Source: Candidatus Parcubacteria bacterium (GTDB taxonomy: Bacteria > Patescibacteriota > Saccharimonadia > UBA4664 > JBIOIQ01). Taken from it: DNA of 64,000 nucleotides. Positions 8,200 through 61,143 of the stretch are shown one piece after another. Numbering within the stretch: position 1 is the first letter of the stretch; each line of letters opens with the position of its first letter. The position numbers and the translations under genes were made by a program. Location: the NCBI GenBank assembly GCA_963718875.1, contig OY970378.1:388631-452630 (forward strand), given 5' to 3'. The notes beneath the pieces were generated by a model, which was not told the origin of the DNA, did not search any database, and saw only the letters and a list, made by a program, of their open reading frames with translations.

Positions 8200-8267
8200 A
8201 TGGGCGCGTCACTTGCGTTTTTCAGATAACCTATGTCAGACTTATCTTATAAGTTAAGGGGTTAGGG

Positions 8268-9404
8268 TTGAAACAGCGGGCATATTTGGCGAGTCCATTC
8301 GGGTTTAGCGAAGGTGCCAAGTTATTTATGGAGCGAGTATATGTTCCGCGGTTGGCCGAGGTCGTTGATATTATTAATCCATGGCTTTTGACGAGTGATG
8401 CTGAGATTCATCAGTCTTTTCGTGATGGTAAGGTTGCAGAGTTTAGACATGAGATCGGCAAGCGAAACGCGGATGGAATACAGCGGGCTGATATTGTGAT
8501 TGCTGCTCTTGATGGGCAAGAGCTAGATAGCGGAACGGTGGCTGAGGTTGGGTATGCAGCTGGACTTGGTAAGCCGGTTTATGGTTATCGTAACGACATA
8601 CGTCAAGCAGGCGAGTTACAAGCGACGTTTAACCTGCAGGTGGAATATTTTATTCATTCATCTGGAGGTGTTATTGTTCAAAGTCTAGATGAGTTAGTGG
8701 CAGTAATGGCTAATTTAGATTCGTCTTTGCAAAATTCAGTTGCGCGGGGGCTGAGATCAGATCATGAAATAGAATCGACTGACTCAGACTTGAACGTTTC
8801 AGATAGTTTGCCAGGTTTAGCTGATTTTTTGTTTGAGGTTGGTATTTTAGCAAAGACACCCAGAAGTTTTACCTTTTTGCTAGGTAGCGGTCAGCAATCC
8901 GTGGCCGAACACATAAACAGAATGTCCTACGTGGGCTTAGTATTAGCAACTATGAATGGTGAGGCCGATGTGGGTAAGGTGATTGAAATGTGTTTGCTGC
9001 ATGATTTAGCAGAGGCGCGTACAAGTGACTTAAATTATGTCTACCAAAAGTACGTGGAATCAAATGAGGAGAAAGTTATAAGTGAGATTGCTGATTCTGT
9101 TAGCTTCGGTAAACGCATGCTGGCCGTTCTAAGGGAGTACAAGCAACGCGAAACCATTGAAGCAAAGCTTGCTAAAGACGCGGACAACATTGAGTTTATT
9201 CTCTCGCTCAAAGAACAGATCGACACCGGCAACACACGCGCCGAAACTTGGATGCCGCCGGCTTTGAAGCGTTTAAAAACGTCGGAAGGGCAAAGACTCG
9301 CTGAGGTTATTGTTAAGACAAGTTCGGATGACTGGTGGTTTGGGAATAAGGATGATGATTGGTGGATCAACCGGAAAGGGATGGATCATACAAAAAGATT
9401 CTAG
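8268..9404 (+). CDS. fusion protein: N-terminal nucleoside 2-deoxyribosyltransferase/Rcl-like domain plus C-terminal YfbR-like HD-domain 5'-deoxynucleotidase
   Basis: The N-terminal roughly 160 aa resemble the PF05014-type fold (ASPFGFSEG, VIAALDG, GTVAEVGYAAGLGKPV). The C-terminus has HD motifs (SVAEHINRMS, LLHDLAEARTSD). TTG start with an AAGGGG Shine-Dalgarno. Confidence 0.6.
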   Translation: MKQRAYLASPFGFSEGAKLFMERVYVPRLAEVVDIINPWLLTSDAEIHQSFRDGKVAEFRHEIGKRNADGIQRADIVIAALDGQELDSGTVAEVGYAAGLGKPVYGYRNDIRQAGELQATFNLQVEYFIHSSGGVIVQSLDELVAVMANLDSSLQNSVARGLRSDHEIESTDSDLNVSDSLPGLADFLFEVGILAKTPRSFTFLLGSGQQSVAEHINRMSYVGLVLATMNGEADVGKVIEMCLLHDLAEARTSDLNYVYQKYVESNEEKVISEIADSVSFGKRMLAVLREYKQRETIEAKLAKDADNIEFILSLKEQIDTGNTRAETWMPPALKRLKTSEGQRLAEVIVKTSSDDWWFGNKDDDWWINRKGMDHTKRF

Positions 9405-17516: not shown

Positions 17517-19835
17517 ATGAAAGTATTAGCGAGTTGGTTAAATGAATATTTGTCAACAAAAGTTGACGCAAAAACGGCTGCCGAACGCTTGACAGCGGCT
17601 GGCATAGAGATTGAACAAATAATTGGTTCAATAAAGCTGGATAGAAAAATTGTTGTGGCGCAAGTTAATAAAGTTATTCAGCATCCAAACGCAGACCGTC
17701 TTAAAGTGGTTGAAGTTGATATGGGTACTGGAGTTGTTCAGGTTGTATGTGGTGGGCCAAATGTTGCTAGCCGCCAAAATGTAGCTTTGGCGTTGCCTGG
17801 GGCAAAACTTCCGGATGGCAAAATTATTGAAAAAGCGCTTATACGAGGCGAAAACTCAGAAGGAATGATATGCAGTGCTTTTGAACTCGGCTTAGGAGAT
17901 GATCATGAAGGCATTATGGTGCTTGATTCTGGATTGACACTTGGCGCAACATTGTGCGACATAGTGGATTTTGGCGATATCTTAGACTTGACTACGGCTG
18001 CTAATAGATCAGACCTACTTTGTACAGTAGGGTTGGCTCGAGAAGTGGCTGCTCAAGGCGGGGAAGTTGCATTAGAGCCAATAATTGAGGCCAAGGAATT
18101 TAAGGTTAATGAGGGAATGATCGGTGAGCTAGACGGAGGTCAGGTTAAAAAATATGTACTTACTCATGTCAAATTAAACAAAAACGGGGATAGTCCGCAA
18201 TGGATGCAGCAGCGGTTGCGGGCTGCGGGACTGCGTCCTATAAATACTGTTGTAGATATTACCAACTACGTTATGTTGGAGCTGGGTCAACCGTTGCATG
18301 CGTTTGATAGTAGGAAAGTAACATTGCCAATAAGTGCTCACTCCCCTGGCGAAAACACCAACCTGACTATTTTAGACGGCTCTATACGCGGACTCTCCCC
18401 TAACGATCTTGTAATTTTTGACAAAAATGGTCCTATAGCTTTGGCCGGTCTTATGGGGGGCAAACTTAGTGAAATAACTTCAACAACTAAGGAAATTTAT
18501 CTTGAATCGGCTTGTTTTGACGGGACTAAGGTGCGAAAAATGGCGGTTCGTCAAGGGTTACGGACTGATGCCAGTTCCCGCTTTGAACGTAATCTGCCTC
18601 TCCCCCTTGTAGCTCTTGGTATGAGGCGTGCAATTGAATTGTTAGAAGAATTATGTGATGCCCAGATTACGGCAATTTCCAGTGTTGAGCCCCCCCTATC
18701 CCCGGCTGGGACACTGGAGGTTTCTTTGGATCGAATTAACGCCCGACTGGGCATTAATGTGACCCAACAACAAGCTGTTTTGGCATTATCAAACTTAGGG
18801 TTTGAAATAAATGGTAGCGACCAAAGGTTTAACCTCTCTATCCCCTGGTGGCGAACCGATGTTTTGGATGAGGCAGATATTGTGGAAGAGCTAGGTAGAA
18901 GCATTGGCTATGATGCCCTACCCCCCACACTTCCTACCTGGACACCTACAAAGGTAGACTTTGATGAGTATTGGCCAAAACTTTGGCGGCTTAAGGCGCT
19001 TTTGCGTGGTTTGGGCTTGGACGAAGTAGTTACCTACTCTTTTGTAAGCGAGAAACAGTTGGATGACTTTAATCATGATAAGCAAAGCCATTTAAAGCTT
19101 AAGAACCCCCTTTCGGTAGAGCAAGCTTACTTACGTAGCAGTTTGGCGCCCAGTTTGGTGGCAACAGTAGCGCGTAATGCTCGGAACTTCCCTAGCTTTG
19201 GTATATATGAGATTTCTAAAGTATATTTAGCGACAGATGATCATACGCAACAGCCGGCTGAGCCAATGCGTTTGGGTGTAGCGTGGCGAATTGATAACCC
19301 GTATGCAAAGGTAAAGAGCGTAGTAGATACTTTATCTCGTGATTTTGCACAGTTTAAGGTTAAGCCGAATGAAAACTCTATTTTCACGCATGGTAAAAGT
19401 GCACAAATCTTGTTGGATAATCAGCCAATTGGCTGGATTGGTGAAATTAACAAGGCCATTTTGAAAAGCAATAAAATTACTAGTGATGTAGGCTATCTGG
19501 AAATTGACTTGATGCCGTGGCTGACACAGCCAAATAGTAAAAAAGCTACCCCAATAAGTCGCTTCCCTGCTATTACCCGAGACTTATCGATTATTGTGAG
19601 TTCTGACAAGCTATGGAGTGACATTAATGAAATTGTGCAAAATGCCAACGTAGGAAAAGTTGAATACTTAAATGAGTATTATGGTTTGGATTTGGAGAAA
19701 GGTACAAAAAGTGTGTCTATGCGGTTAACCTTTAGTTCTCTAGAGCGGACCTTGGCAGATGGGGAGGCCGATGCGGCGACTGTGAAGGCGATGGACGCAT
19801 TATCGCAAGAACTTGGGGCAATTCAGAGGGGTTAA
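17517..19835 (+). CDS. pheT: phenylalanyl-tRNA synthetase beta subunit
   Basis: N-terminal tRNA-binding (EMAPII-like) region (VVAQVNKVIQHPNADRLKVVEVDMG), B3/4 and B5 regions, C-terminal FDSA-like domain; adjacent to pheS. Confidence 0.9.
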   Translation: MKVLASWLNEYLSTKVDAKTAAERLTAAGIEIEQIIGSIKLDRKIVVAQVNKVIQHPNADRLKVVEVDMGTGVVQVVCGGPNVASRQNVALALPGAKLPDGKIIEKALIRGENSEGMICSAFELGLGDDHEGIMVLDSGLTLGATLCDIVDFGDILDLTTAANRSDLLCTVGLAREVAAQGGEVALEPIIEAKEFKVNEGMIGELDGGQVKKYVLTHVKLNKNGDSPQWMQQRLRAAGLRPINTVVDITNYVMLELGQPLHAFDSRKVTLPISAHSPGENTNLTILDGSIRGLSPNDLVIFDKNGPIALAGLMGGKLSEITSTTKEIYLESACFDGTKVRKMAVRQGLRTDASSRFERNLPLPLVALGMRRAIELLEELCDAQITAISSVEPPLSPAGTLEVSLDRINARLGINVTQQQAVLALSNLGFEINGSDQRFNLSIPWWRTDVLDEADIVEELGRSIGYDALPPTLPTWTPTKVDFDEYWPKLWRLKALLRGLGLDEVVTYSFVSEKQLDDFNHDKQSHLKLKNPLSVEQAYLRSSLAPSLVATVARNARNFPSFGIYEISKVYLATDDHTQQPAEPMRLGVAWRIDNPYAKVKSVVDTLSRDFAQFKVKPNENSIFTHGKSAQILLDNQPIGWIGEINKAILKSNKITSDVGYLEIDLMPWLTQPNSKKATPISRFPAITRDLSIIVSSDKLWSDINEIVQNANVGKVEYLNEYYGLDLEKGTKSVSMRLTFSSLERTLADGEADAATVKAMDALSQELGAIQRG

Positions 19836-20730: not shown

Positions 20731-20760
20731 TTGTCTACCCGTAACCATAAGTGGTATAAT
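20731..20760 (+). promoter_or_regulatory. promoter TTGTCT-18 nt-TGgTATAAT with the ATG (20767) 7 nt downstream of the -10 (putative leaderless)
   Basis: -35 at 20731-20736, extended -10 at 20752-20760; the in-frame ATG at 20731 listed in the ORF track lies inside this promoter. Confidence 0.4.
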
Positions 20761-20766: not shown

Positions 20767-21204
20767 ATGAATCCAACTCAACCAACACCGGCTCCATCAC
20801 CAGAGCTGCCAAAAGTACCTCAAGTAGAAAACATACCTAATAACCAACCTTCAGCTCCGGAACAACCTGCTGCGACAGAGGCAGCTCCGCAACCGGGACA
20901 GGCAGTGGTTATGCCTACATCTGTGGCGGCCGTACCTACTCCGCCTTCAGTCACGCCTGTTGTTCCACCTCTGGTGGCTACATCCCCGGCTGTTCCAGTT
21001 GTGCCGGGGCCTGCTATTGCCGATGACGTTGATGTGATTGAAAAAGAATGGGTCGACCAAGCCAATGCAATTATTGCGGCTACCAAGGAAGATCCTTACA
21101 AAGAAGAAGAAGCCATTGAGGACTTGCAGGTTGATTACATGAACAAGCGCTACGGTAAAGTGATTAAGAAAGACGAGCCAAAAGACAATGGACCACAAAC
21201 GTAA
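20767..21204 (+). CDS. proline/alanine/valine-rich hypothetical protein
   Basis: Low-complexity P/A/V-rich N-terminal two-thirds with a conserved-looking charged C-terminal tail. The start is set at 20767 because of the promoter; the ORF track alternative is 20731. Confidence 0.4.
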   Translation: MNPTQPTPAPSPELPKVPQVENIPNNQPSAPEQPAATEAAPQPGQAVVMPTSVAAVPTPPSVTPVVPPLVATSPAVPVVPGPAIADDVDVIEKEWVDQANAIIAATKEDPYKEEEAIEDLQVDYMNKRYGKVIKKDEPKDNGPQT

Positions 21205-21238: not shown

Positions 21239-24200
21239 ATGGTTGCAGTAGTCCTAGTTATTTTAATATTGGCTATAGGTTTTGCGTGCGTTGCCTATGT
21301 GCTTTATCGGCGAACTTTACGCAGGGCAAAAAACATTGAGCGTGGCCTCAAAATGGTGCCTTTATTGATCCATTTGCCGCCTAGAAGTGCTGACACTGAG
21401 GCTGGTTCGCGGGACGTGCGTGAAGTGATGCGGGAAAAGGTGGCGCAAGCCGAGGTTTTGTATAATCTTATATCTGGTACAGCCACAACTGGATTTAAAA
21501 GCCGATTTTATGGTCAACGCCACGTTGCATTGGAAATTATAGCGACTGACGGAATGGTACATTTTTACGCGGCTGTACCGATAGCGTTGGTGCCGGTCAT
21601 CACTAACGCTATTCAAACTGCCTATGCAGGGGCAAAAATTGAAGAGGCCGAAGACCATAACATCTTTAACCCACACGGAAAGTTATCAAGTACTGCTGGC
21701 GGTGAACTGGTACTTAAGGCTAAGGCTGCCTACCCAATTGCAACAATTGAAAAACTGGAGCGGGATCCCATAGAAGCTCTTATAAATGCCTTGAGTAACT
21801 TAAAGCCTGGTGAAGGTGTCGGTATTCAGATTATGCTTCGCCCAGCCGCTAAGGGGTGGGAGAAAAAAAGCCTAGAGCTGGTTAAAAAAATGCGACATCA
21901 TGCTGGGGCGAAAGCTTCTTCTACCTATAGTACCCGTGATGTTTTAATGGCGGCGGTTAAAGCTCCTGAAGAGCGCCGCCAAGAAGTTGCAGCTAATTCT
22001 CCGCAAGCTCTATATATGAGCGACTTAGAACAGTCGGTCGTAAAAGCTATCGAAGAAAAAACTACTTTGGCTGCTTATGAAAGTTTGGTAAGAGTGTTGG
22101 TTTCGGCTAATAGCGCCCAAGAAGCGCAAAATTTACTACGTGAGGTAAGCTCTAGCTTCTCATTGCTGGATGCCCCTGGGCTTAACGGCTTTAAGTTTTT
22201 GCCTGCGAATGACATTGCCGGCTTGGTAACGGCTTTTATATTGCGTTTTTTCCCTCCAGAACTAAATCACACCATACTTAATAGTAAGGAACTGGCAACT
22301 TTGTTCCATTTGCCCGACGCCCAGTTTACGGCAAATTCGGAAGTTGAGCGACTGGCGAGCAAAGAGGTGGACGGACCGCCAGCTATTCCCTCCACTGGCC
22401 TATTGATGGGATATAACATTTTTCGAGGGACTAAAAAAGAAATTCATCTTTCGCCTGAGGACCGTCGCAGGCATACCTACATTGTAGGACAAACCGGTAC
22501 AGGTAAAAGTACTATCTTACAGAATTTGGCGGTTCAAGACATGCTGGCAGGCAATGGCTTTGCTTTTATTGACCCTCATGGTGATGAGGCAGAAAAAATG
22601 CTTTCAATGGTGCCCAAAAACCGCTCTGAAGATGTAATTTATTTTAATCCAGGGGATACCGATCATCCGTTAGGACTGAATTTATTTGAGTTTAGTGACC
22701 CGGCGCAGAAAGATTTTTTGATTCAAGAAACTATTAATATGCTTTATAAGCTGTACGATCCGAATGGAACGGGTGTTATTGGTCCTCGGTTTGAACAATG
22801 GTTTCGTAATGCCGCCCTTACACTGATGAGTGATCCAAATGGGGCTACTTTTATTGAAATTCCAAAAGTCTTTACTGATAACGATTATCTCAAGCAAAAG
22901 TTCAAATACATTCAAGACCCAACAGTTATGGAGTTTTGGACTAAAGAAATGGGCCAAACCAGCGACTACCATAAAAGTGAAATGTTGGGTTATTTTGTAA
23001 GTAAGTTTGGTGCGTTTCAGCAAAATGAAATTATGCGTAATATTATTGGCCAAACCAAAAGCGCATTTAACCTGCGTGACATTATGGATAACAAAAAAAT
23101 CCTAATTGTAAACTTGAGTAAGGGTAAATTGGGCGAGCTTAACTCGAGGTTGTTAGGTATGATGTTTGTAATTAAATTCCAGGCGGCGGCTATGAGTCGT
23201 GCAAATGTCCCTGAGGCTGACAGACCGGATTTTTGCTTATATGTAGACGAGTTCCAAAATTTTTCAACCGATTCATTTGCTTCAATTTTGAGTGAAGCTC
23301 GTAAATATCATTTGAACTTGATTGTGGCGAACCAGTTTATAGGGCAGCTCAGTGATGAAATTCGGGACGCAGTGTTTGGCAACGTTGGGACTATTATGAG
23401 CTACCGAACTGGCCCGGAAGATGCGGAGTTTTTAGTTAAGCAGTTTGCTCCTATTTTTGATGCTCACGATATGGTCAATATACCCAACCACAATGCCGTT
23501 ATCCGACTGATGATTAGCGGGTTACCTTCACAGCCCTTTAGCATAACAGCTTTACCGCCGCTGGGAGTCGAAAATCCAGAGCTGGGCGAAGCCATGAAAC
23601 AGTTGTCGAGGGCTAAGTTTGGTTCAAGTCGAGCGCAGGTGGAACAGGAGATATTTGCGCGATTGAGTAGTAAGCCAGTGCAATCTCCAATTGCGAGCCA
23701 AACACCTGTAGCTGGGTTAAATTCAGGCGTACCACAGCCAACTTCTATGCCTAATCCACAATCGCCAATGTCGGCACTGCCTGGTCCCAATAGAGCTTTG
23801 CCTGGGGCTGCAGTTGGTGGTATTAATCCTACGGTAGCACCGGTTTTGTCTGGCAGCTCTTCGTCTCCAGTACCTTCTACGTCTACAGCGATGCCTGCAC
23901 AACCAAGAGTAGCTTCCGCTTCGGTCTTAAAACCGCTGGATAGCCAGCCTATAGTAGACACCCAGGCTCCTGGAGCAAATCCCAATAATGTTGCCACAAC
24001 TAACCCTACAGCTATAAGTCTGTTAACTCCAGCTTCGGTAGTAGGCGCGCCGCCTGCATCTTTGGTTTCTGTGGCGCCACCTAACGATAAAATAGATAAA
24101 AGCCAAGCTCAGGGGCAACCTCCTTCAAGTCAGGTAGCTCCGGTAGTTTCGCTGCACCATGATGCCGTTCCGCCAGCGCCGGCATCTATTCCGGCAAGTC

Positions 24201-25726
24201 CCAGCACCTTAAACACAGGTTACAGTTTTCAAAAGTCTGCTAGCCCGGTCGCTCAGCCAAACCAGCCCTTACCTTCTCCAGATGTTTCTACATCTGCACC
24301 TAATCAATTTGAAAAACCACAGTTGGTTCCTATCCCAATAGCTCGCGCTCAGTCCGAAAAAACAATCGCGCCTAGATTAGACCCTGTACAGGATATTCCT
24401 GGCGAAGGTAGTTTAAATGAGTCAGTCATTAAGCCGCCAACTCCAGTATTGAATTCGGCTCTTACGCCCGCCCGAGAAGTTCAATCACTGCCTTTTAATG
24501 CCACTACTGCTGATGCGGCAATCCCAGTTCGTCCAGCTGTTGTAGCTGCTCCTGCGACACATTCGAGTATGGCTAACCAACCAATTTCGCATTTGGCTAC
24601 CACACCCACACCCACACCCACACCCACACCCACACCCACACCCACACCCACACCCACACCCACACCCACACCCACACCCACACCCACACCCACACCCACA
24701 CCCACACCCACACCCACACCCACACCCACACCCACACCCACACCCACACCCACACCCACACCCACACCCACACCCACACCCACTATTGATAAACCGAAAA
24801 ATGAGCCAGCTTTAGATTTAGAAAAATATCAAATTACAATTGCACCTGCTTTTCAGCAGTTGAGAGATAAACCTTTTGAGGCGCAAAATTCGGGGGCAAT
24901 GATTGCTTCTGAGTTATCATCAAATCCGATGTCGATGCCTTTGCCAGTAGCCGATAAACCTCAGTTTCATGGGGAGCAAGTTGTGGCGGAAAAGCCGCAA
25001 GATAAGATTATAGATTCTGTAGCGTCTCAAAGCAGCCATGACGATGTAAATAATGTTTTTGCTGCTCAAACTTCTTTAGAAAAGTCAGATCAGATGGGCT
25101 CAGCGATAGCCGAACCTGGTCCAGGCCAGGAAGCTCTTATTCCGCCGCCGCAATCCAGTGAAAAAAAATCAACTTTGTCCGAGTCTGATACTGTTGATCA
25201 CCACGAATCTGTGATCAAACACGATCCCAAAGGACGGTTGATTGTTACGCCTAGGCCCGCAGTAGAATGGTTGCCTGAGGAGAAAACCGATAGCCTTCCG
25301 CCGCCCGCTAAGGAGCCATACAAACCGGCATTGGAGGCTTTGGCAGCTTTGGACAAACAAAAGGCTTTAGAGGCAGCGGCAGCCAAGGCTAGAGCCGATG
25401 CGGAAGTTAAATTAGAAGCCGAGGTCAAGCGACCCACGACTATTAAAGCAAATCTTAAAAAAGTTAAAGCTGAAGCTAAGCCTATGGGTAAGGCTATTGA
25501 CTCAGCTAAGGCAGAAAAAATTATTAAGCCTATCCGTTCAGGTGCTACGCGTCACAATCCACCAACTCCCACAATTATTCTACCCAGTAAAAATCCAGAT
25601 ACAGTAACGCCCCAGGTTGGGTTGTCAACTGTAAATCAGCCACCTACTCCAGTAATAGAAAAACCATCGGTATTGGCTCCAGGAGAAATATATGTGGACG
25701 AAAAGGGCAACGTAGTTACGGGCTAA
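21239..25726 (+). CDS. large membrane-anchored P-loop ATPase of the TraD/TraG/VirD4 (type IV coupling protein-like) family with a roughly 750-aa disordered Pro/Ser/Thr/Ala-rich C-terminal tail
   Basis: N-terminal TM helix. Walker A YIVGQTGTGKST, FIDPHGD (the DPKGD-like motif of coupling proteins), Walker B LYVDEFQNF, and NLIVANQ. The tail contains (TP)n and a Lys/Ala-rich segment. Confidence 0.65.
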   Translation: MVAVVLVILILAIGFACVAYVLYRRTLRRAKNIERGLKMVPLLIHLPPRSADTEAGSRDVREVMREKVAQAEVLYNLISGTATTGFKSRFYGQRHVALEIIATDGMVHFYAAVPIALVPVITNAIQTAYAGAKIEEAEDHNIFNPHGKLSSTAGGELVLKAKAAYPIATIEKLERDPIEALINALSNLKPGEGVGIQIMLRPAAKGWEKKSLELVKKMRHHAGAKASSTYSTRDVLMAAVKAPEERRQEVAANSPQALYMSDLEQSVVKAIEEKTTLAAYESLVRVLVSANSAQEAQNLLREVSSSFSLLDAPGLNGFKFLPANDIAGLVTAFILRFFPPELNHTILNSKELATLFHLPDAQFTANSEVERLASKEVDGPPAIPSTGLLMGYNIFRGTKKEIHLSPEDRRRHTYIVGQTGTGKSTILQNLAVQDMLAGNGFAFIDPHGDEAEKMLSMVPKNRSEDVIYFNPGDTDHPLGLNLFEFSDPAQKDFLIQETINMLYKLYDPNGTGVIGPRFEQWFRNAALTLMSDPNGATFIEIPKVFTDNDYLKQKFKYIQDPTVMEFWTKEMGQTSDYHKSEMLGYFVSKFGAFQQNEIMRNIIGQTKSAFNLRDIMDNKKILIVNLSKGKLGELNSRLLGMMFVIKFQAAAMSRANVPEADRPDFCLYVDEFQNFSTDSFASILSEARKYHLNLIVANQFIGQLSDEIRDAVFGNVGTIMSYRTGPEDAEFLVKQFAPIFDAHDMVNIPNHNAVIRLMISGLPSQPFSITALPPLGVENPELGEAMKQLSRAKFGSSRAQVEQEIFARLSSKPVQSPIASQTPVAGLNSGVPQPTSMPNPQSPMSALPGPNRALPGAAVGGINPTVAPVLSGSSSSPVPSTSTAMPAQPRVASASVLKPLDSQPIVDTQAPGANPNNVATTNPTAISLLTPASVVGAPPASLVSVAPPNDKIDKSQAQGQPPSSQVAPVVSLHHDAVPPAPASIPASPSTLNTGYSFQKSASPVAQPNQPLPSPDVSTSAPNQFEKPQLVPIPIARAQSEKTIAPRLDPVQDIPGEGSLNESVIKPPTPVLNSALTPAREVQSLPFNATTADAAIPVRPAVVAAPATHSSMANQPISHLATTPTPTPTPTPTPTPTPTPTPTPTPTPTPTPTPTPTPTPTPTPTPTPTPTPTPTPTPTPTPTIDKPKNEPALDLEKYQITIAPAFQQLRDKPFEAQNSGAMIASELSSNPMSMPLPVADKPQFHGEQVVAEKPQDKIIDSVASQSSHDDVNNVFAAQTSLEKSDQMGSAIAEPGPGQEALIPPPQSSEKKSTLSESDTVDHHESVIKHDPKGRLIVTPRPAVEWLPEEKTDSLPPPAKEPYKPALEALAALDKQKALEAAAAKARADAEVKLEAEVKRPTTIKANLKKVKAEAKPMGKAIDSAKAEKIIKPIRSGATRHNPPTPTIILPSKNPDTVTPQVGLSTVNQPPTPVIEKPSVLAPGEIYVDEKGNVVTG
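24599..24783 (+). repeat. perfect hexanucleotide microsatellite (CACACC)x30 inside the CDS, encoding (Thr-Pro)n
   Basis: Three consecutive 60-nt sequence lines are identical and consist solely of CACACC units; the repeat is in frame (2 codons per unit). Confidence 0.95.
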
Positions 25727-25791: not shown

Positions 25792-26337
25792 TTAGCGTTT
25801 AGGCTTAATAATTTTAGCTAATCCTTCGATAATAAGACCAAGGACTCCTCCGACTACTAGTGACAGAATAAATTCTGAGCCAGACAAGCTAAATCCGCCG
25901 ACTCTAGCTGTTACGTATAAAAATCCACCTAGTAGTGCGGCGGTGGTGGTGGCTCCGAGCAAAACCGAGGGTCTTGCAACCGTAGCACCGGCTATCTCGC
26001 TAGTTTTTTCGACGGTCGGACTATGAATTACTTTACTAAACTGGCGACTGGCTGGCGATAGGTGTCGCTGAAGGCTTCGAAGCGTATCAACGTATGCTAC
26101 TTCTTTGTCTAGACGCGTAGGTTTGTTGGTGACTATAGTGTCTTTTTCAGCCGCTGATGCCTGTGGTTCCGGTTGTTGTTCTAGTTTTAAACGGGCTGCT
26201 TCCAGTTGCTCGAACCGTTCATTTCGGCCTTCTTCTAGTTGTTCTGGGCTAAGCTCGCGACGTTCAGGCCCCTGAAGCTGTTCGTTGCCTTCAGGAGTTT
26301 TAGCTAATTCTGGGTTTTTAGATTCGTATTCTGGCAT
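25792..26337 (-). CDS. hypothetical membrane protein (acidic N-terminal region, two C-terminal TM helices)
   Basis: ORF immediately downstream of the LPXTG protein gene on the same strand; charged coiled-coil-like N-terminus, hydrophobic C-terminus. Confidence 0.4.
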   Translation of the reverse strand: MPEYESKNPELAKTPEGNEQLQGPERRELSPEQLEEGRNERFEQLEAARLKLEQQPEPQASAAEKDTIVTNKPTRLDKEVAYVDTLRSLQRHLSPASRQFSKVIHSPTVEKTSEIAGATVARPSVLLGATTTAALLGGFLYVTARVGGFSLSGSEFILSLVVGGVLGLIIEGLAKIIKPKR

Positions 26338-26345: not shown

Positions 26346-28151
26346 TTATATCCCTGGGTTATGTTCAACTCGAAGAATCTTAACCTCTTTGCTTAATTGA
26401 CGGTTTCGTAAGTAAAAGTAAACGATGAGGCTAAATGAGGCTAACATTATTGTAGCACTGGTAGTGGCTCCGGTCTCAGGTAAAGTTTGGGCGGCTGCCT
26501 CAAGTTGTTTTATAGGCGGTGCGGCCACTGGGATAATAACTGTATTTCCGTAAACATTATTCATTTGTAAATCAAACGAAAAAATATCGGATGTTGATCG
26601 AGCTGTGGTTGGAACTGGATTTTTAATTTTAATTTGAAATACATTCGTAGTGCCGCTGCCGGGTGAGATGTTAACGGCAGGCCAGACTAGGGTTCGATTA
26701 ACCATGGTTGCACCACCTAGGTTAACGACTTCGGCGTATTCTAATATATCGGTGATGTTCTCACTAAGTTGGTAGGCATTTTGAATCCCTGCGCCGCTAT
26801 TGGTGGTTCTAAGGGTGTATTCGATAATGTCTCCAGCGCCGGCTTTAATATTGGGGTTGTTGGCATCAAGCATGTTTCCGTCTTTCCCGTCGCGTTGGAT
26901 GTAGGCAGCGGATTTAAATTGGTTAATATGAGGAAGTTGAGGGGTTGTAGCGGGAGTCGGAGTAGGAACGGGGACTGGAGTTGGTACCGGCACAGGAGTA
27001 GGTACGGGCGTAGGGACTGGTACGGGGGTAGGTACAGGAACTGGTGTAGGTACAGGAGTAGGCACTGGTGTTGGTGCAGTTGGGGTGACTGGTGAAGGAT
27101 TAGGCAGTATGGCCACACCGCATTTGAATTGTCCTGAGGTCGAGCCGTTTGAATAGGCAGTAATCTCAGGGTTGTTGGCGTCACCGTCTATTCCGCCACC
27201 GTTGCCTGCAGTGTCAACGCCTCTGGCATAGATGTAGAACCGATGGGTTTTGCCGTCACGGTATTTTGCCGGAATCTGCCAACTAAAGCCGTGATTGCCG
27301 GATATACCAAAGGTTTTATTAACATCTGGTCTTGATATGTTGGTAGCTCCATAGTCGTATGCATCGGTTGTTGGTATTTGACGCGAAGCTGAAGCTGGGG
27401 AGTCTACATATATATGAATACCAATGGCAGTAGTAGGGCTGTCGGAGTCGTAGGCCCATCCGGGGACGTTAAAACAATCCCAGGGATCAATGGTTCCTAA
27501 TGGTATTTTTTGAGATGGTGGAGGGGGTGGTGGAGGAGGGGAGGTTTGTGTGGGCAGGTTTTCAACAGCAATATTGCCACATGACATTAGTATGGCAAAA
27601 TAAGTTCCTTGGCTATTACGTCCTTCAATAACTCGAGCGTTGGTAGTTACTGCTACCGATCCGAGAGTACGGGCGTAGTAGGTATAGCTACCGACGTTAA
27701 TTACTTGGTCGGTTGAATCATACCGTTCGCGACCGATGGAAATTAGGCTGCTACCTTGGGCGGGAATATATTTTGGCTCGCTAGCATTACGAATGTCGTC
27801 ATCAGAGATGTGGTAATAATCGCGGTAAAGCGCTCGAAGCTCGGCACTGCCGTTGATGCTTTGGATGAGGTCGTCTTTGTCGCTAATGCCTCCTTGAATA
27901 ATGTCATTTGGTGATGAGTTATTAGCGCCTACTGGAGGCACAGAAATGGCGAAAAATTGCATTAGGATGGCAAAAATACCAGTAATTAATGACAATCGCC
28001 TTGTAAGGTTCTCGCGACGCAAGCGCTTTGCGTAAAACGCCAGTTGACTAGTAATCTGAGGGCTGAAATTTAAATTTGAAACTAACTTTTTGAACATTTG
28101 TCTTTCAATCTTCTTATGTTTAATTAAAGCACAGGTGTACCCAATGTGCAA
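26346..28151 (-). CDS. sortase-anchored (LPXTG) cell-surface protein with poly-Pro and (PTPV)n linkers
   Basis: N-terminal signal/TM segment. The C-terminus has LPETG followed by a hydrophobic stretch and RNRQ (a canonical cell-wall sorting signal). Internal PPPPPPPP and a PTPVPTPVPV repeat are present. The start may be the second ATG at 28097. Confidence 0.75.
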   Translation of the reverse strand: MHIGYTCALIKHKKIERQMFKKLVSNLNFSPQITSQLAFYAKRLRRENLTRRLSLITGIFAILMQFFAISVPPVGANNSSPNDIIQGGISDKDDLIQSINGSAELRALYRDYYHISDDDIRNASEPKYIPAQGSSLISIGRERYDSTDQVINVGSYTYYARTLGSVAVTTNARVIEGRNSQGTYFAILMSCGNIAVENLPTQTSPPPPPPPPSQKIPLGTIDPWDCFNVPGWAYDSDSPTTAIGIHIYVDSPASASRQIPTTDAYDYGATNISRPDVNKTFGISGNHGFSWQIPAKYRDGKTHRFYIYARGVDTAGNGGGIDGDANNPEITAYSNGSTSGQFKCGVAILPNPSPVTPTAPTPVPTPVPTPVPVPTPVPVPTPVPTPVPVPTPVPVPTPTPATTPQLPHINQFKSAAYIQRDGKDGNMLDANNPNIKAGAGDIIEYTLRTTNSGAGIQNAYQLSENITDILEYAEVVNLGGATMVNRTLVWPAVNISPGSGTTNVFQIKIKNPVPTTARSTSDIFSFDLQMNNVYGNTVIIPVAAPPIKQLEAAAQTLPETGATTSATIMLASFSLIVYFYLRNRQLSKEVKILRVEHNPGI

Positions 28152-36762: not shown

Positions 36763-37752
36763 TTGGTGGCTAAAAGAGCAGCTAAATTTGTAACAACTTC
36801 TATAGTAACGGGTGTACTTTCGCTCGGTTTTGCTGTTGCCACTCATGCTGCAGATACCTCTGCAGCCGAAGTCGATAATTATTCAACAACTGTAGTAACG
36901 ACCCACAAAACTCAAACCATTTCTGTTGCAGAAAGTAATAGTAATATTAATAATGATTCGGACGGGAATGACTCAACTGAGCAATCTTTGTCGCAATATT
37001 CCAATGATGTTAATGTAACCCTACAAAGTTCTGTTAGTTCTAATGATTTAGAACTTAGCAATACAACTACTAGTACGAAAGTTGATACTACGGCAACTGA
37101 TGTTGACGGTAAGAGGTTGGGTTCTTCGGATTCTCATCTAAGTATGAGTCTGGTTGGTGCTGTGAACCCTGAGCTTAATAGTGGTTCTTTCGGACCCTCC
37201 TCTTCTAGTAGTTCTGCCCAAAAAACTTTAGCTGCGCCGACACCTGTAACTCCAGAGTTTCAAGCTCGTTTGCAGGCTAAAATGTCGCAATTAAGCGGAG
37301 GACATTCTGCAATTAGACACGCAGAGCCTTCGTACGGATTGGCGGCCTTAGATACGTCTGCCAACTTGCCTGATACGCCTGTAGCACCGGCTCCAGCCAA
37401 AGATTTGCCTATCCAAGGTGCTCTGGCAGGCATTTCTAATACTTTGTCGAATATTACTTTGCCTACAGTCCGTGAGTTTATGGTGGCCATGGTAGCTTCT
37501 CTTCGCACGACTATAACAGTAGGCTTAATTCTGGCCATTACCCTGATATCGCTTGTTTCTTTATCGGTAAAACGTCGCTTTGTTGATGAGTTAAAATCAT
37601 CGGGATACAGTCATGCTGCGCGGGCCGACGTCTCAGATTCTATTCTTTTTGCTACTCCTACAAAAGTGAGTTTTGCTTGGGCCGTACAGCCCAGCCAGAA
37701 GCTCACTTTTTTTGGTGTCAGAAACAAAGTATTAACGTTCCAAATCCAATAA
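36763..37752 (+). CDS. secreted/membrane Ser/Thr-rich hypothetical protein
   Basis: N-terminal signal-like hydrophobic segment, low-complexity S/T/N-rich body, C-terminal TM helix. Confidence 0.4.
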   Translation: MVAKRAAKFVTTSIVTGVLSLGFAVATHAADTSAAEVDNYSTTVVTTHKTQTISVAESNSNINNDSDGNDSTEQSLSQYSNDVNVTLQSSVSSNDLELSNTTTSTKVDTTATDVDGKRLGSSDSHLSMSLVGAVNPELNSGSFGPSSSSSSAQKTLAAPTPVTPEFQARLQAKMSQLSGGHSAIRHAEPSYGLAALDTSANLPDTPVAPAPAKDLPIQGALAGISNTLSNITLPTVREFMVAMVASLRTTITVGLILAITLISLVSLSVKRRFVDELKSSGYSHAARADVSDSILFATPTKVSFAWAVQPSQKLTFFGVRNKVLTFQIQ

Positions 37753-37771
37753 GAAAGGAGGTGAAGATATA

Positions 37772-38455
37772 ATGACAGTCAAACGTGCAATTGCAGTAAC
37801 AAGTGTAGCCAGCATGCTTAGTTTTGGATTAACTGGATTAGCTCACGCAGATGAAGTGTCGGTAAGCTTGACCGGTCCAGGTTCCACTACAAATACTAGT
37901 ATTAACGAAACTACCAATGTCACGTCTAATACTAACAATAATGTAGCGGTTACAAACGTGAACACGCAGATTGCTACAAGCGGTAGCGCCAACGTAAGCG
38001 GTAATACAGTTGGAGGTTCAGCCACAACTGGCAACGCAAGCAATAATGCTACTACAACAACTGTAGTTGCGATTAATAATCCAGCTCCTGTATTCCCAGG
38101 AATGGGTAGTGCCGGTACACCAGGAGGTACTGGTGTTGGTGGTAGTAGTAATGTCGGTGGCGGAGGAGGTAGCGTTGGTGCAAGCGGAAGCGGTGGTTCG
38201 AGCCGCATTCTAGGTGCAGGTAGTGGTGGTAGCGGCGTTGGAGCAGCTATGACCTTGCCTCAAACTGGACCAAGCGACCAAATCGATGTTTCGGCTCTTC
38301 GCAGCCAAACCTTGAGCGCATCTGCCCCAGCACCAAGCATTGTTAAAAAGACCAATGGTTTTTCAACAATGTTGTTGGTAATCGCAGCCGCCCTAAGTTT
38401 GCTCGGGGCAGTTGGGAGCGCAGTGTTCTCTATTCGCCAAAAGCGAATGGTTTAA
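37772..38455 (+). CDS. secreted Asn/Thr/Gly-rich repeat protein with LPQTG motif and C-terminal TM plus basic tail (putative sortase substrate)
   Basis: Signal peptide; the module LTGPGSTTNTS...NTNNNVAVTNVN...SGSANVSGNTVGGSATTG is shared with the two downstream genes; LPQTGP; C-terminal hydrophobic segment followed by RQKR. Confidence 0.5.
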   Translation: MTVKRAIAVTSVASMLSFGLTGLAHADEVSVSLTGPGSTTNTSINETTNVTSNTNNNVAVTNVNTQIATSGSANVSGNTVGGSATTGNASNNATTTTVVAINNPAPVFPGMGSAGTPGGTGVGGSSNVGGGGGSVGASGSGGSSRILGAGSGGSGVGAAMTLPQTGPSDQIDVSALRSQTLSASAPAPSIVKKTNGFSTMLLVIAAALSLLGAVGSAVFSIRQKRMV

Positions 38456-38467
38456 GGAGGGTGTTCC

Positions 38468-38944
38468 ATGCAAGTTAGAAGTACCTTAACGAAAACATCG
38501 GCTATAGCACTCGCTATAACAGTAATATTACTAGGACTCTTGGCTTTCTTGAATCGGCAGCCCAAGTCCCTCAGCAAGGTAAAAGCTACCACCGAGTCTA
38601 GTAGCAATGTTGTTACTGCAGATCCAAAAGTGGATAGTGTAAAAAGTGCACCGGTTGATGTGACGGTTAACGGCCAGCATATAGATATGCCGGAAAATGG
38701 TTCGAAAACCATCCATTTAAATAGTGGCGAAAAGGTTGAGGTCAGTTCTACCCAAGAGGGTGGTTCTTCTACTGTAACTACGTCGCCCAATGGTTCGATC
38801 CAGGTTTCGACCCAAACGTCCAATAACAACTCTTCGGCTAGTTCGACAACCCAGGTTTTTAGCAGCAGCTTCAACCAGTCATCGAATTCGTCGCAAGATC
38901 ATGTGTTCTCGACTAGCAACAACAGCGTGCAAGTCACTCATTAG
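38468..38944 (+). CDS. secreted Ser-rich hypothetical protein
   Basis: N-terminal TM/signal segment followed by an S/T/N-rich low-complexity body. Confidence 0.35.
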   Translation: MQVRSTLTKTSAIALAITVILLGLLAFLNRQPKSLSKVKATTESSSNVVTADPKVDSVKSAPVDVTVNGQHIDMPENGSKTIHLNSGEKVEVSSTQEGGSSTVTTSPNGSIQVSTQTSNNNSSASSTTQVFSSSFNQSSNSSQDHVFSTSNNSVQVTH

Positions 38945-39030
38945 AAAAGACTATGTCAAATAGCAGCCCATAGCGGGCCCTCGGGCCCGGTACTACAAAA
39001 AATAATTAACTAAAGAAGGAGTTTTCAAAT

Positions 39031-39618
39031 ATGAAAACAGCACACGTTTTACGATACGCCGCTATCGGTATGGCAACCCTAGGTCTAGGCCTTGGTACAG
39101 TCGCCGCTAGCACCGTAACCGTTGGCACAACTGGCCCAGGTTCAACGACCAACACCAGCGCCAACACAACCCACAACGCCACAGTCAACACCAACAACAC
39201 AGTTGGTGCCCTGAACTTGAACGCACAGGGTGCTTCAAGTGGCAACACTAATGTTAGCGGAAACACCACCGGCGGTTCAGCCACCAGTGGAGCCGTTAAC
39301 AACAACGCCGTATCCACCACAACTGTAGCAGTCAACAATGCTGCTTCAGCAGGTGCCGGTGCCGGTTTCTGGACCGGTGGTAATGACTCAGTATCAGTCA
39401 ACTTGACTGGCCCTGGTTCAACCACAAACACTAGTGTAAACAACACCAACAACTGGACTCAGAACACTAACAACAATGTTAATGTTACCAACTTGAACTT
39501 CCAGTCTGCTGGAAGCGGTAGTGCAAACGTAAGCGGTAACACCGTTGGCGGAAGTGCTACGAGTGGTAGTGCTTCAAACACTAGCTCAACTTCAACTTCA
39601 GTTACTCTAAGTAACTAG
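39031..39618 (+). CDS. secreted Asn/Thr/Gly-rich repeat protein (paralog of 37772-38455)
   Basis: Signal peptide and two copies of the GPGSTTNTS...NTNN...N(L/V)N...SGNT(V/T)GGSATSG module. Confidence 0.5.
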   Translation: MKTAHVLRYAAIGMATLGLGLGTVAASTVTVGTTGPGSTTNTSANTTHNATVNTNNTVGALNLNAQGASSGNTNVSGNTTGGSATSGAVNNNAVSTTTVAVNNAASAGAGAGFWTGGNDSVSVNLTGPGSTTNTSVNNTNNWTQNTNNNVNVTNLNFQSAGSGSANVSGNTVGGSATSGSASNTSSTSTSVTLSN

Positions 39619-39677
39619 TTCGAGGTCGCTCACGATGGGGAGCTTAGCTCTCCATCCGCAATTATCCAAATATCTCA

Positions 39678-46776: not shown

Positions 46777-48326
<1,550 letters not shown>

Positions 48327-51700: not shown

Positions 51701-51776
51701 TGGTGGAGCATGTCGGGATCGAACCGACCACCTCCTGCTTGCAAAGCAGGCGCTCTACCGAATGAGCTAATGCCCC
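51701..51776 (-). tRNA. tRNA-Ala (anticodon TGC)
   Basis: Reverse complement GGGGCATTAGCTCATTCGGTAGAGCGCCTGCTTTGCAAGCAGGAGGTGGTCGGTTCGATCCCGACATGCTCCACCA; G3-U70 pair, anticodon loop CTTTGCAAG. Confidence 0.9.
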
Positions 51777-51861
51777 TCCAGCTCGTGCCTAATATATGAA
51801 TGAGCTTAGTGTGCAAAGGGCTCCAAGCTTCAATACTATGTTGCTTGATGTTTGACTTGCT

Positions 51862-51938
51862 TGGTGGGCGCACAGGGACTCGAACCCCGGACCTCGTCAT
51901 TATCAGTGACGCGCTCTAACCAGCTGAGCTATGCGCCC
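51862..51938 (-). tRNA. tRNA-Ile (anticodon GAT)
   Basis: Reverse complement GGGCGCATAGCTCAGCTGGTTAGAGCGCGTCACTGATAATGACGAGGTCCGGGGTTCGAGTCCCTGTGCGCCCACCA; anticodon loop CTGATAA. Confidence 0.9.

Positions 51939-57767: not shown

Positions 57768-61143
<3,376 letters not shown>

Follow-up and report, generated by a model that had tools for sequence, protein, structure and literature searches.

The gene at 21239..25726 of the window (the whole 64-kb stretch of DNA analysed) encodes the Saccharibacteria version of an ATPase, with a DUF8128 domain and a VirD4/VirB4 fold, whose chromosomal genes occur throughout Patescibacteria. With moderate confidence, we favour a reading in which its drifting C-terminal tail tethers a terminal peptide, and in which the (TP)30 array within that tail is a recent slippage expansion in an unconstrained spacer. 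The features of the locus are listed in Table 1.

Table 1. Features of the ATPase gene and its neighbours, in window coordinates.
Feature	Position	Strand	Residues	Basis or remark
c3	20767..21204	+	145 aa	ATG at 20767, ORF opens at TTG 20731; small conserved partner gene
ATPase gene	21239..25726	+	1,495 aa	Membrane-anchored DUF8128 + VirD4/VirB4-fold ATPase, predicted-disordered C-terminal tail
N-terminal TM helix, then basic RRTLRRAK	21239..21310	+	~1-22	Kyte-Doolittle; model helix 2-35
DUF8128 (PF26449) alpha/beta N-domain	21344..22378	+	~36-380	Homolog annotation, model
RecA-like ATPase domain, VirD4/VirB4/HerA group	22400..23665	+	~388-809	Sequence, fold, Pfam
Walker A GQTGTGKS	22487-22510	+	417-424	
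FIDPHGD	22565-22585	+	443-449	
All-helical insertion	22703-23089	+	489-617	Model; between Walker A and B
Walker B LYVDEF	23237-23254	+	667-672	
Tail spacer	23666..25669	+	810-1477	P/A/S/T-rich, rapidly evolving, predicted disordered
Microsatellite, 30 x (ACA CCC) at 24601-24780	24600..24783	+		TRF; (TP)30, antisense (GGGTGT)n
Conserved C-terminal peptide VLAPGEIYVDEKGNVVTG	25670..25723	+	1478-1495	
c6	25792..26337	-	181 aa	Conserved convergent neighbour; charged N-terminal half, hydrophobic, apparently membrane-spanning C-terminal region
c7	26346..28151	-		Surface protein, LPETG-type sorting signal, imperfect (PVPT)n repeat

The original prediction of a protein of roughly 1500 aa, with an N-terminal TM segment and a P-loop ATPase carrying FIDPHGD and Walker A and B motifs, is borne out by the translated ORF, in which all of these motifs and one TM helix were located. 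Kyte-Doolittle hydropathy over 19 residues has its maximum (3.15) at residue 1, with no other TM-grade segment along the whole protein; the tail reaches 1.44 at most and holds no TM segment. The predicted topology is N-out, C-in. As the basic RRTLRRAK follows the single TM helix and hydrophobic segments are lacking in the tail, the ATPase and tail should be cytoplasmic, and the suggestion of a surface-associated ATPase is not upheld. The protein was also called giant, which is fair for its length but nothing special to the source genome, since relatives in the clade reach 2,006 aa. The structural model has a pLDDT of 82, with the helical insertion separating the Walker motifs, and its DUF8128 domain is mostly at 80-90; this domain has no relative among solved structures by sequence. 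Like its structural relatives, the ATPase may assemble as a membrane-anchored ring.

More than 5,900 homologs were found, every one of them from CPR bacteria, and nearly all carry a precomputed PF26449:DUF8128 annotation. An exhaustive search placed DUF8128 in 1,212 representative clusters, at a constant position (~residues 39-380). The best solved relatives by sequence are TrwB (2.7e-7) and DotL (1e-6); together with the all-helical insertion between Walker A and B, these agree with the initial description of a coupling-protein-like P-loop ATPase. In the same search of solved structures HerA scored 0.035, while chains of VirB4 and FtsK were absent among the matches at E<=1. Thus, classification with FtsK, raised earlier as an alternative, does not hold, and classification with HerA is only weakly approached. 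The best fold matches are the VirB4 C-terminal domain, DptH, TrwB and HerA, with FtsK distant, in a search that cannot tell VirD4 from VirB4 or DptH. The VirB4 C-terminal domain and the C-terminal ATPase of DptH/DndH are matches at the level of fold, and CPR genomes hold a separate VirB4 within the T4SS cluster, distinct from this ATPase. Scanned alone, the ATPase domain scores 21.4 bits with TrwB_AAD_bind (cutoff 20.5). TIGR00929 scores only 19.9 bits (cutoff 643), and all curated type IV coupling protein (T4CP) models are far under their cutoffs. The VirB4-specific Pfam family matches none of 30 members scanned with Pfam. The ATPase is 32% identical to a Rhodococcus plasmid DUF87 protein.

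The T4CPs TrwB (R388), TraD (F), VirD4, DotL/IcmO and Cag-beta share with this protein the fold, a membrane anchor, the all-helical insertion and a DPxGD motif after Walker A. However, the usual T4CP anchor consists of two TM helices, whereas here a single TM helix is combined with a DUF8128 domain of 340 aa. The gene shows no linkage to virB4, to a relaxase or to mobile elements, and its syntenic Southlakia counterpart (see below) is needed for growth, as a conjugation gene would not be. F TraD and DotL have partner-binding C-terminal extensions as well. The tail here is 5-10 times the length of that of TraD, and its terminal motif differs.

In Saccharibacteria the gene lies in a fixed block, c3-ATPase-c6-c7-gyrB-gyrA. 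No T4SS genes were found within +-10 kb in 80 related loci, nor VirB4, VirB6, VirB8 or relaxase domains in the scanned window ORFs of at least 120 aa, in line with the earlier remark that the window holds no other T4SS components. Unannotated neighbours of the ATPase have no P-loop. The small gene c3 stops 34 nt before the ATPase gene begins, is directly upstream of it in 37 related loci, and is called as an identical 145-aa protein in an independent assembly; the best promoter-like site nearby is at 20731-20760. It has no Pfam or NCBIfam match; its N-terminal half is P-rich, and its C-terminal part is a conserved helical module (DVDVIEKEWVDQ...DPYKEE...DYMNKRYGK). The presence of c3 is weakly associated with that of the tail, and phylogeny confounds the association (both in 32 cases, neither in 21, only the tail in 14 and only c3 in 4). 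The c6 gene is found in 32 loci and c7 in 30-33, where relatives of c7 are of the CLIPPER/DUF11 type; the CLIPPER/DUF7927 matches on a c7 ortholog are marked weak or faint.

An identical block is present in 'Ca. Southlakia epibionticum' ML1: a small TM protein, a small hypothetical protein, the ATPase, DUF5353-like and DUF11/CLIPPER-like genes on the opposite strand, gyrB and gyrA. Gene sizes match, and the annotations 'TraM recognition domain-containing' and 'ATP-binding protein' agree between the Southlakia gene and the homologs. On the basis of gene order, gene size and annotation, we infer that the ATPase is orthologous to SEML1_0142, although the latter is not among the best 120 homolog matches listed. 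SEML1_0142 is annotated as a 'TraM recognition domain-containing protein', scored ES/ES/ES and placed in class I of the essential genes (61 genes), and its family, DUF8128 (PF26449), is flagged as core and Patescibacteria-enriched; it is distinct from SEML1_0293, a dispensable (NE) 't4cp' paralog. The protein encoded here is thus probably essential. By position, SEML1_0141 corresponds to c3 (GD/ES/ES, 0/9 insertions recovered), and SEML1_0143 (DUF5353-like) and SEML1_0144, both non-essential, to c6 and c7. SEML1_0142 has 1,019 aa, with a P-loop domain at ~residues 381-800 and a tail of ~210 aa, against 1,495 aa for the ATPase here, and no microsatellite is mentioned for it in the sources consulted. 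The DUF8128 N-domain, the C-terminal hairpin peptide described below, the c3/c6/c7/gyrBA order and the essential syntenic gene were all absent from the original prediction.

This position bears on the possibility that the protein supplies the coupling ATPase that the essential T4SS of Patescibacteria lacks, with the tail recruiting substrates or docking on VirB4, and the array altering the geometry of recruitment. The T4SS cluster of Southlakia is without a recognisable coupling protein (PMC10633639), T4CP genes are often located away from virB4, and a C-terminal recognition tail has a precedent in TraD (PMC7555446). The family is also VirD4-like by sequence, with the helical insertion, and its Southlakia counterpart is essential, as are T4SS genes. 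However, T4CP-type homologs are reported in 2,918/3,035 CPR genomes and VirB4 in only 2,417. Furthermore, SEML1_0142 falls in class I, being essential from T0 on, whereas most genes of the Southlakia T4SS cluster are GD and then ES. The lack of T4SS linkage in the 80 loci, the unusual anchor and the low scores with curated T4CP models also argue against such a role, as do the closest non-CPR relatives, which are mostly on non-mobilizable plasmids. Thus, a coupling function is conceivable, but we consider it rather doubtful.

The tail covers residues 810-1495. It is predicted to be disordered, as originally proposed, but with a length of 686 aa rather than ~750 aa, and in the full-length model of a homolog (P0043) the equivalent tail has a pLDDT of 30-38. 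The spacer is rich in P (18%), A (12%), S (10%) and T (10%), and is not alignable with the tail of the relative whose core is 83% identical. The last 18 residues (PGEIYVDEKGNVVTG) are the only segment of the tail that aligns with the closest relative, P0001 (E 1e-4). The terminal motif is present within the last 40 aa in 92/109 complete homologs, and in the P0043 model the terminal peptide is a beta-hairpin (pLDDT ~70). Thus, (TP)30 is not in a linker, as first described; it does not join two domains, but lies inside a C-terminal disordered tail that ends in a conserved peptide. Microgenomates-type members have no tail (core ~785 aa), while tails of 400-1,200 aa in the source clade contrast with ones of mostly ~90-300 aa among the other Saccharibacteria. 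As tail length ranges from ~0 to ~1,200 aa among relatives and the gene is nevertheless retained, length looks unconstrained in evolution. However, the tails of giant relatives hold several conserved islands, so in some lineages the spacer is more than an inert filler.

In the reading that we favour, the ATPase is encoded with the small partner c3, apart from T4SS genes, and the Saccharibacteria core would have acquired a C-terminal tail of freely drifting sequence and length, with predicted disorder and a predicted cytoplasmic location. The last ~15 residues are a conserved peptide with a predicted hairpin, and the tail is most likely a flexible tether by which this peptide is offered to a partner or to the motor itself. 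The analogy is with F-plasmid TraD, where a flexible C-terminal tail offers its last residues to TraM (PMC7555446).

The claim of 30 perfect CACACC units at 24601-24780 encoding (TP)n was confirmed in full. TRF reports one array, with period 6, 30.7 copies, 100% matches and zero indels, and the 18-mer (CACACC)3 has 28 in-register matches from 24601 to 24780, with 0 expected in shuffles. The array is in frame, reading ACC + 30 x (ACA CCC) + ACT, or T-(TP)30-T (residues 1121-1182). All 30 units share one codon pair, with CCC the rarest Pro codon of the genome (13-20% elsewhere), while elsewhere in the tail T and P are each encoded by all four of their codons. Its supposed rarity also held up: the window and 1.38 Mb of related CPR DNA hold no other long perfect short-unit array, and the runners-up are a (CCCAAC)~54 array of a different gene (81% match) and (GTAGGT)12.7 (94%). 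The longest perfect dipeptide run among 197 family members has 5 copies, and no tandem repeat is present in the ATPase gene of the two closest relatives (cores 83% and 77% identical). The PT linkers of cellulases, the Pro-rich spacer of TonB and the FtsK linker are likewise low-complexity, proline-rich, extended and length-variable among relatives. Such spacers normally have mixed codons and join folded domains, whereas the array here is a perfect single-codon-pair microsatellite in a terminal tail. The neighbouring c7 carries the usual degenerate form of repeat (26959-27069, 77-82% matches by TRF).

These observations are consistent with the favoured reading, in which (TP)30 would have arisen by recent replication slippage of one ACA-CCC unit in an unconstrained spacer, and would persist because the 6-nt unit keeps the frame, leaving intact the terminal peptide of a protein that is probably essential. 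The array adds 62 residues to a 624-aa coil (~9% of the tail), an addition that the diversity of tail lengths suggests is near-neutral. Its copy number is expected to be unstable and its functional effect is probably small.

A less favoured possibility is that the array is real, but that its length or perfection was made by the assembler or by polishing, so that '30' is biologically meaningless. At 184 bp it exceeds typical short reads, and an independent short-read assembly of the same organism (Logan, ERR12037361) fails to cross it, stopping at ~24487 on one side, ~110 nt short of the array, and at 24755 on the other, 29 nt into it from the 3' side. A genuine long perfect repeat would be expected to cause such a break, and the entry into the array through a matching flank indicates a real repeat. 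The exact 1,495-aa product is absent from the records, although a contig of >1 Mb carries its immediate neighbours; a differing copy number in that assembly is one possible reason. However, the contiguous 64 kb with complete 16S, 23S and 5S genes suggests a long-read or finished assembly, and the downstream frame and conserved C-terminal peptide are intact. An assembly effect on the repeat number therefore appears unlikely.

We give slightly less credence still to the array as a selected, contingency-like variator, in which slippage would alter (TP)n and tune the reach of the tail, with useful heterogeneity in the population. Perfect arrays of 30 short units are of the tract type that slips at high rates, and the contingency loci of Haemophilus, Neisseria and Campylobacter are similarly long perfect short-unit coding tracts, which are mutational hotspots. 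Here the array is unique in the ATPase family, the in-frame unit leaves the protein intact, and small changes could matter given the essential Southlakia counterpart. However, as the 6-nt unit, unlike the units of those loci, spans whole codons, there is no phase (ON/OFF) switching, and the predicted cytoplasmic product would be hidden from phage or host surveillance. Tail length looks unconstrained, the array contributes a small part of it, and the nearest relatives, without a repeat at this site, give no sign of a maintained variator. Thus, of the contingency-locus-like length variator originally proposed, frame preservation stands, but an adaptive role is unsupported. Finally, a role at the DNA level, in which the antisense (GGGTGT)n would fold as tandem G-quadruplexes and so stall replication or transcription or favour recombination, is very improbable: the 30 antisense G3 tracts yield 7 non-overlapping canonical motifs, all 7 on that strand across the 64-kb window, but this is a predicted motif count alone, the G-rich strand is the template strand rather than the one displaced during transcription, and the absence of the array from relatives argues against a conserved role.

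The reading favoured here, as rather probable, is that the array-bearing gene encodes a membrane-anchored, VirD4-like ring ATPase that is probably essential. Its tail would form a disordered cytoplasmic tether displaying a conserved hairpin peptide at its end, and (TP)30 would be a recent slippage expansion of one unit within this spacer, young, probably unstable and near-neutral. On its own the microsatellite is a curiosity; what it leads to is a gene family worth experimental work. Earlier literature covers the family, its resemblance to VirD4 and its placement apart from virB4; according to literature searches, the tail architecture, the conserved terminal peptide and the microsatellite appear to be new.

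The core of the protein ends with ...VEQEIFARL at residue 809, leaving a tail of 686 amino acids rather than the approximately 750 originally estimated. The motifs recognized in the original prediction are all found (Walker A GQTGTGKS, residues 417-424; FIDPHGD, 443-449; Walker B LYVDEF, 667-672), as is the N-terminal membrane segment, a single hydrophobic helix. With Pfam and NCBIfam models, the whole protein gives sub-threshold matches to TrwB_AAD_bind, DUF87/HerA, TraG-D_C, SXT_TraD and a CD1115-type VirD4-like model. Of the three families proposed as a check, TrwB_AAD_bind just passes when the domain is scanned in isolation (21.4 bits, cutoff 20.5), TraG-D_C stays below threshold and T4SS-DNA_transf (PF02534) is absent from the window protein. 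Among 30 family members, Pfam matches are found to DUF87 (29/30), TrwB_AAD_bind (27/30), TraG-D_C (22/30) and T4SS-DNA_transf (10/30), and no member matches a VirB4-specific Pfam family. The alternative classification raised in the original prediction is not borne out for FtsK and gains little support for HerA: in a PDB sequence search with a profile of the family, TrwB (E 2.7e-7) and DotL (1e-6) score well ahead of HerA (0.035), and no FtsK or VirB4 chain appears at E<=1. Residues 1-820 were modelled with AlphaFold (mean pLDDT 82); the model comprises the TM helix, an alpha/beta N-domain (39-360), a RecA-like domain, and an all-helical insertion between the Walker motifs (489-617). Together, the sequence matches and the parts of this model place the motor in the VirD4/VirB4/HerA group; judged by sequence, it is nearest VirD4-type proteins and clearly not FtsK-like.

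The label of coupling-protein-like ATPase thus stands for sequence and fold, but several defining features of coupling proteins are missing. Like VirD4, TraD and TrwB, the window ATPase is a P-loop NTPase with both Walker motifs and the VirD4/HerA-FtsK fold, and, according to the predicted structure, it has the all-alpha domain inside the nucleotide-binding domain. However, type IV coupling proteins have a two-TM anchor directly before the ATPase, whereas the window protein has a single TM-grade segment (1-22) followed by the 340-aa DUF8128 domain, and their association with a T4SS, relaxase or mobile element has no counterpart here. Curated coupling-protein models fall below threshold (TIGR03743, 38.5 bits vs 366; TIGR03754, 21.3 vs 647.55; NF045973, 26.6 vs 250). 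VirB4 shares only the C-terminal ATPase fold (TIGR00929, 19.9 bits vs 643), and the alpha/beta/gamma motor domains and 4-TM anchor of FtsK/SpoIIIE are lacking.

The N-domain corresponds to Pfam DUF8128 (PF26449, residues ~39-380, ahead of the ATPase), an assignment taken from homologs that are 60-83% identical over residues 1-790 and carry precomputed PF26449, there being no local Pfam match. An exhaustive search with this domain alone yields 1,212 representative clusters, always aligned at residues ~39-380. In homolog searches the family has thousands of members, exclusively from Patescibacteria; among the source names are Saccharimonadia, Microgenomates and Woesebacteria, and the loci derive from Saccharibacteria as well as Doudna-, Berkel-, Curtiss-, Davies-, Roizman- and Gottesmanbacteria. 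The DUF8128/VirD4-like ATPase is close to universal in Patescibacteria, and a literature search for PF26449 gives no matches. Relatives outside CPR are found for the ATPase module alone (32-37% identity, without DUF8128), mostly on plasmids typed as non-mobilizable. One, a DUF87 protein of Rhodococcus ruber pYYL1.1, is 32% identical between residues 402 and 770 (E 5e-64); the small DUF5663 gene behind it was rejected as a relative of the window's c3 gene as the two do not align. Another is a 395-aa stand-alone ATPase on a Sulfitobacter plasmid, with transposase genes immediately downstream. Three non-Saccharibacteria CPR loci (L065, L073, L075) carry two family members within a few kb of each other, with one or two genes between them, one of which is conserved (cluster 18); this suggests that the ATPase was duplicated locally in some lineages of CPR.

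ORF clustering over 80 related loci defines a fixed Saccharibacteria gene block in the order small TM protein, c3, ATPase, c6 and c7 (both on the opposite strand), gyrB and gyrA. The order from c3 to gyrA is that of the window, of most Saccharibacteria loci and of Southlakia; in three loci c3, ATPase, c7 and c6 are co-oriented. The setting in the window is chromosomal and rich in housekeeping genes (a class I Trp/Tyr-type tRNA synthetase, PheS/PheT, gyrB/gyrA, ClpB, an AddA/UvrD-type helicase-nuclease and rRNA genes). The absence of other T4SS components from the window was correctly noted at the outset: T4SS genes (virB4 etc.), relaxase and mobile-element genes are found neither there nor within +-10 kb in the 80 loci. 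Hidden T4SS genes among the unannotated ORFs of the window were considered and rejected, as these have mostly signal-peptide-like N-termini and no P-loops. On the evidence of co-occurrence, a partnership of c3 with the tail was likewise rejected: the association is weak and confounded, and in three loci c3 accompanies an ATPase that has hardly any tail. Because the promoter-like site (see table) ends 6 nt ahead of the c3 ATG, the c3-ATPase transcript may be leaderless or nearly so.

Coordinates of features in the window and in related loci
Feature	Sequence	Position	Strand	Description
Promoter-like site	window	20731-20760		best sigma-70-like site of the region; TTGTCT, 18 nt, TATAAT, with upstream TG; 10/12 matches
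c3	window	20767-21204	+	small P-rich protein, helical C-terminus conserved
ATPase	window	21239-25726	+	1,495 aa
Antisense ORF	window	24481-24783	-	100 aa, MGVGVGVG...; reverse reading of the array, not a gene
Array, Tandem Repeats Finder	window	24600-24783		only one in the gene; period 6, 30.7 copies, 100% matches, 0 indels
Array, perfect units	window	24601-24780		30 units; 28 in-register (CACACC)3 18-mers
c6	window	25792-26337	-	conserved neighbour gene
c7	window	26346-28151	-	LPxTG-type surface protein (LPETG in the window), CLIPPER/DUF11 type in relatives
c7 repeats	window	26959-27069		(PVPT)n-like spacer; degenerate 18- and 48-nt repeats, 77-82% matches (TRF)
gyrB	window	start 31829
gyrA	window	start 34050
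Unannotated series	window	36763-42056		signal-peptide-like N-termini, no family matches
ORF of this series	window	start 37772		paralog-like to the next
ORF of this series	window	39031-39618		paralog-like to the previous
18-nt repeat	window	39150-39203		within ORF 39031-39618
rRNA genes	window	46777-48324, 51701-51938, 57764-61152, 61410-61519		unlinked
Nested ORF	window	59646-60098	-	within 23S
(CCCAAC)n	L042, Saccharibacteria	19390-19722		other gene; degenerate
(CCCAAC)n	L044, Saccharibacteria	19412-19680		other gene; degenerate
DUF87 protein	L082, R. ruber pYYL1.1	6134-8812
Stand-alone ATPase	L081, Sulfitobacter plasmid	6977-8164

The same block is listed in the supplementary tables of Wang et al. 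2023 (PMC10633639) for 'Ca. Southlakia epibionticum' ML1, the only Patescibacteria Tn-seq found in the literature. From gene order, gene sizes and annotation, we infer that the window gene corresponds to SEML1_0142, which is absent from the top 120 matches of the homolog search. SEML1_0142 belongs to class I, which holds only the 61 genes scored ES at T0; it tolerates 11 insertions. Around it, the hypothetical genes SEML1_0140 (354 bp) and SEML1_0141 (420 bp, the counterpart of c3 by position) are scored NE/GD/GD and GD/ES/ES, the latter with 0/9 insertions recovered; the DUF5353-like SEML1_0143 and DUF11-like SEML1_0144 are NE, and SEML1_0145 (gyrB) and SEML1_0146 (gyrA) are ES/ES/ES and GD/ES/ES (PMC10633639). 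A more canonical T4CP-like paralog, SEML1_0293 (PF10412, 3e-15), is NE at every time point (PMC10633639). Quinonero-Coronel et al. 2025 report 5,713 VirD4-type homologs in 2,918 of 3,035 CPR genomes, 148 of the 5,713 near virB4, and call the Southlakia t4cp homolog non-essential, a description that SEML1_0293 fits. The 'T4CP homolog' of CPR is taken as dispensable in the T4SS literature consulted, and the essentiality of the family is recorded only in a supplementary table (PMC10633639). As the dispensable T4CP-like gene in the Tn-seq table is SEML1_0293, the two paralogs are worth separating; the distinction between an essential SEML1_0142 and a dispensable SEML1_0293 appears to be unstated in the literature consulted.

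Compatible with the tether reading is that the motor would be the coupling ATPase missing from the essential T4SS of Patescibacteria. This attractive idea is regarded as possible though doubtful, as the family is more widely distributed than VirB4 and its essentiality class differs from that of the T4SS genes. Replacement of FtsK was rejected, since Southlakia has a canonical, essential FtsK (SEML1_0096), so that the window gene is no substitute for it, and the fold is distant from that of FtsK.

Microgenomates-type members have no tail and end with the core, at ~785 aa, and the tails of most other Saccharibacteria members have roughly 90-300 aa. Tails of the 109 nearest complete homologs have a median length of 261 aa (range 27-567), against ~686 aa in the window. 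Within the window's clade, the sequences first retrieved have tails of 376-1,032 aa, and the exhaustive search extends this to ~1,200 aa (in a protein of 2,006 aa). Composition is rich in P, A, S, T and V, with 18-37% Pro. The window tail and that of the closest relative, P0001, do not align beyond the last 18 residues (VLAPGEIYVDEKGNVVTG vs VVAAGEIYVDDDGNIVQG, E 1e-4), although the cores are 83% identical. Of the 109 complete homologs, 92 have a terminal motif, (P)GE[IV]x[IV]D[DE]xGN[IV]xxG or DTI[YF]IDxxGN[LI], within their final 40 residues. In some clades an acidic strand, ...DDxEVSIKLR, is added or substituted, and two loci (L005 and L045) carry both modules in succession. In a full-length model of P0043, a naturally short-tailed homolog of 933 aa, the tail has pLDDT 30-38 and the final ~20 residues form a beta-hairpin with pLDDT up to ~70. 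This anatomy, a drifting spacer of ~0 to 1,200 residues and a conserved hairpin end, offers experimental handles.

Four giant relatives of 1,773-2,006 aa (P0121, P0123, P0127 and P0129, loci L001 and L032) share islands within their tails that look like linear motifs for partners: PPIGAPPV (two to three times per tail), DITGG, DPYANIDILG, IHFVDP, AEHxIDDLLSxSLI, KVIQPLEPIVP, DVAKAR and GKLILP. The window tail keeps almost none of these. It also has no TM-grade segment (maximum KD 1.44), and basic residues follow the single TM helix, so motor and tail are predicted to be cytoplasmic. On this predicted topology the ATPase and tail should lie inside the cell, contrary to the surface-associated option first entertained.

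The array itself was described accurately from the start: Tandem Repeats Finder, the register of the 18-mer (no occurrence in 100 shuffles) and translation agree on 30 perfect CACACC units encoding (TP)n. The reading frame runs ACC, 30 x (ACA CCC), ACT, giving T-(TP)30-T at residues 1121-1182. All 30 units use the identical codon pair, including CCC, the rarest Pro codon of the genome (13-20% outside the array), whereas elsewhere in the tail every Thr and Pro codon (four of each) occurs and the only further TP run is a single PTPT. No tandem repeats are found in the ATPase genes of the two closest relatives, even at a TRF score of 30. The longest perfect dipeptide run among 197 family members has five copies, and no other short-unit array of equal length and purity is found in 1.38 Mb of related DNA. 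The single codon pair with its rare CCC, the purity and the absence in relatives argue for recent slippage rather than selection at the codon or peptide level. The array may be regarded as a clean snapshot of how low-complexity tails possibly grow through slippage.

An assembly artefact in the copy number of 30 is considered unlikely. The Logan short-read assembly of ERR12037361 represents the same organism according to exact look-ups of neighbour proteins. One of its contigs carries the TSCPD gene, c3 and ATPase codons 1-1,083 and stops near window position 24487; a second runs from gyrB through c7 and c6 to the last 323 ATPase codons and stops at 24755, 29 nt inside the array. Breaks of this kind are what a k-mer assembler produces at long perfect repeats, and the array therefore exists independently of the window assembly. 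For c3, c6 and the TSCPD gene, the exact products are recorded on a contig of >1 Mb and in ERR12037361; exact full-protein look-ups give no record of the 1,495-aa ATPase product, which may be due to indexing or to a different allele, and the homolog search did not retrieve the 100%-identical Logan ATPase fragment. In metagenome contigs the exact 23-mer at the left flank of the array has no match and the tail protein downstream of the array has no relatives; no contig of the same species was found there. If the copy number does vary, the array would be a convenient strain marker for an uncultured lineage.

The original suggestion that gain or loss of units keeps the frame is sound: the 6-nt unit is in frame with the coding sequence, so any change also spares the terminal peptide. 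An in-frame array is probably the only type of long array able to persist in a gene with an essential counterpart. A graded effect of length, in which a hypermutable in-frame array supplies populations with varied tether lengths in an essential cytoplasmic machine, is improbable, as is its corollary that the spread of tethers modulates engagement of the motor with a partner (c3, the T4SS or the motor itself). Such an effect would differ from an on/off surface-antigen switch. The 30 perfect 6-nt units do match the long uninterrupted short-unit tracts of simple-sequence contingency loci. However, unit number in those loci switches expression through frame shift or promoter spacing, which an in-frame 6-nt array cannot do, and their products are exposed to a changing external agent, whereas the window ATPase and its tail are predicted to be cytoplasmic. 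A paper on simple sequence repeats (PMC3315296) does not treat hexanucleotide or in-frame repeats. Under the favoured reading of a tether with a young expansion, the array is a real and unusual sequence feature whose functional meaning is probably modest.

The degenerate repeats in c7 show what an older coding repeat looks like, 2 kb from the perfect array. In L042 and L044, another gene carries degenerate (CCCAAC)n of ~42-54 units with 77-81% matches, which may be an older product of the same process. Read on the antisense strand, the array is (GGGTGT)n and has 30 G3 tracts forming seven non-overlapping canonical G-quadruplex motifs; these are the only such motifs on the minus strand of the 64-kb window, and the plus strand has one, elsewhere. 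In the series of unannotated proteins, the two paralog-like ORFs have a common N-terminal motif, TGPGSTTNTS...N-rich. The 16S and 23S genes lie ~9.4 kb apart, with protein genes and, on the opposite strand, tRNA-Ala(tgc) and tRNA-Ile(gat) between them. At 3,389 nt, the 23S match exceeds the 2,925-nt model, pointing to ~460 nt of extra sequence.
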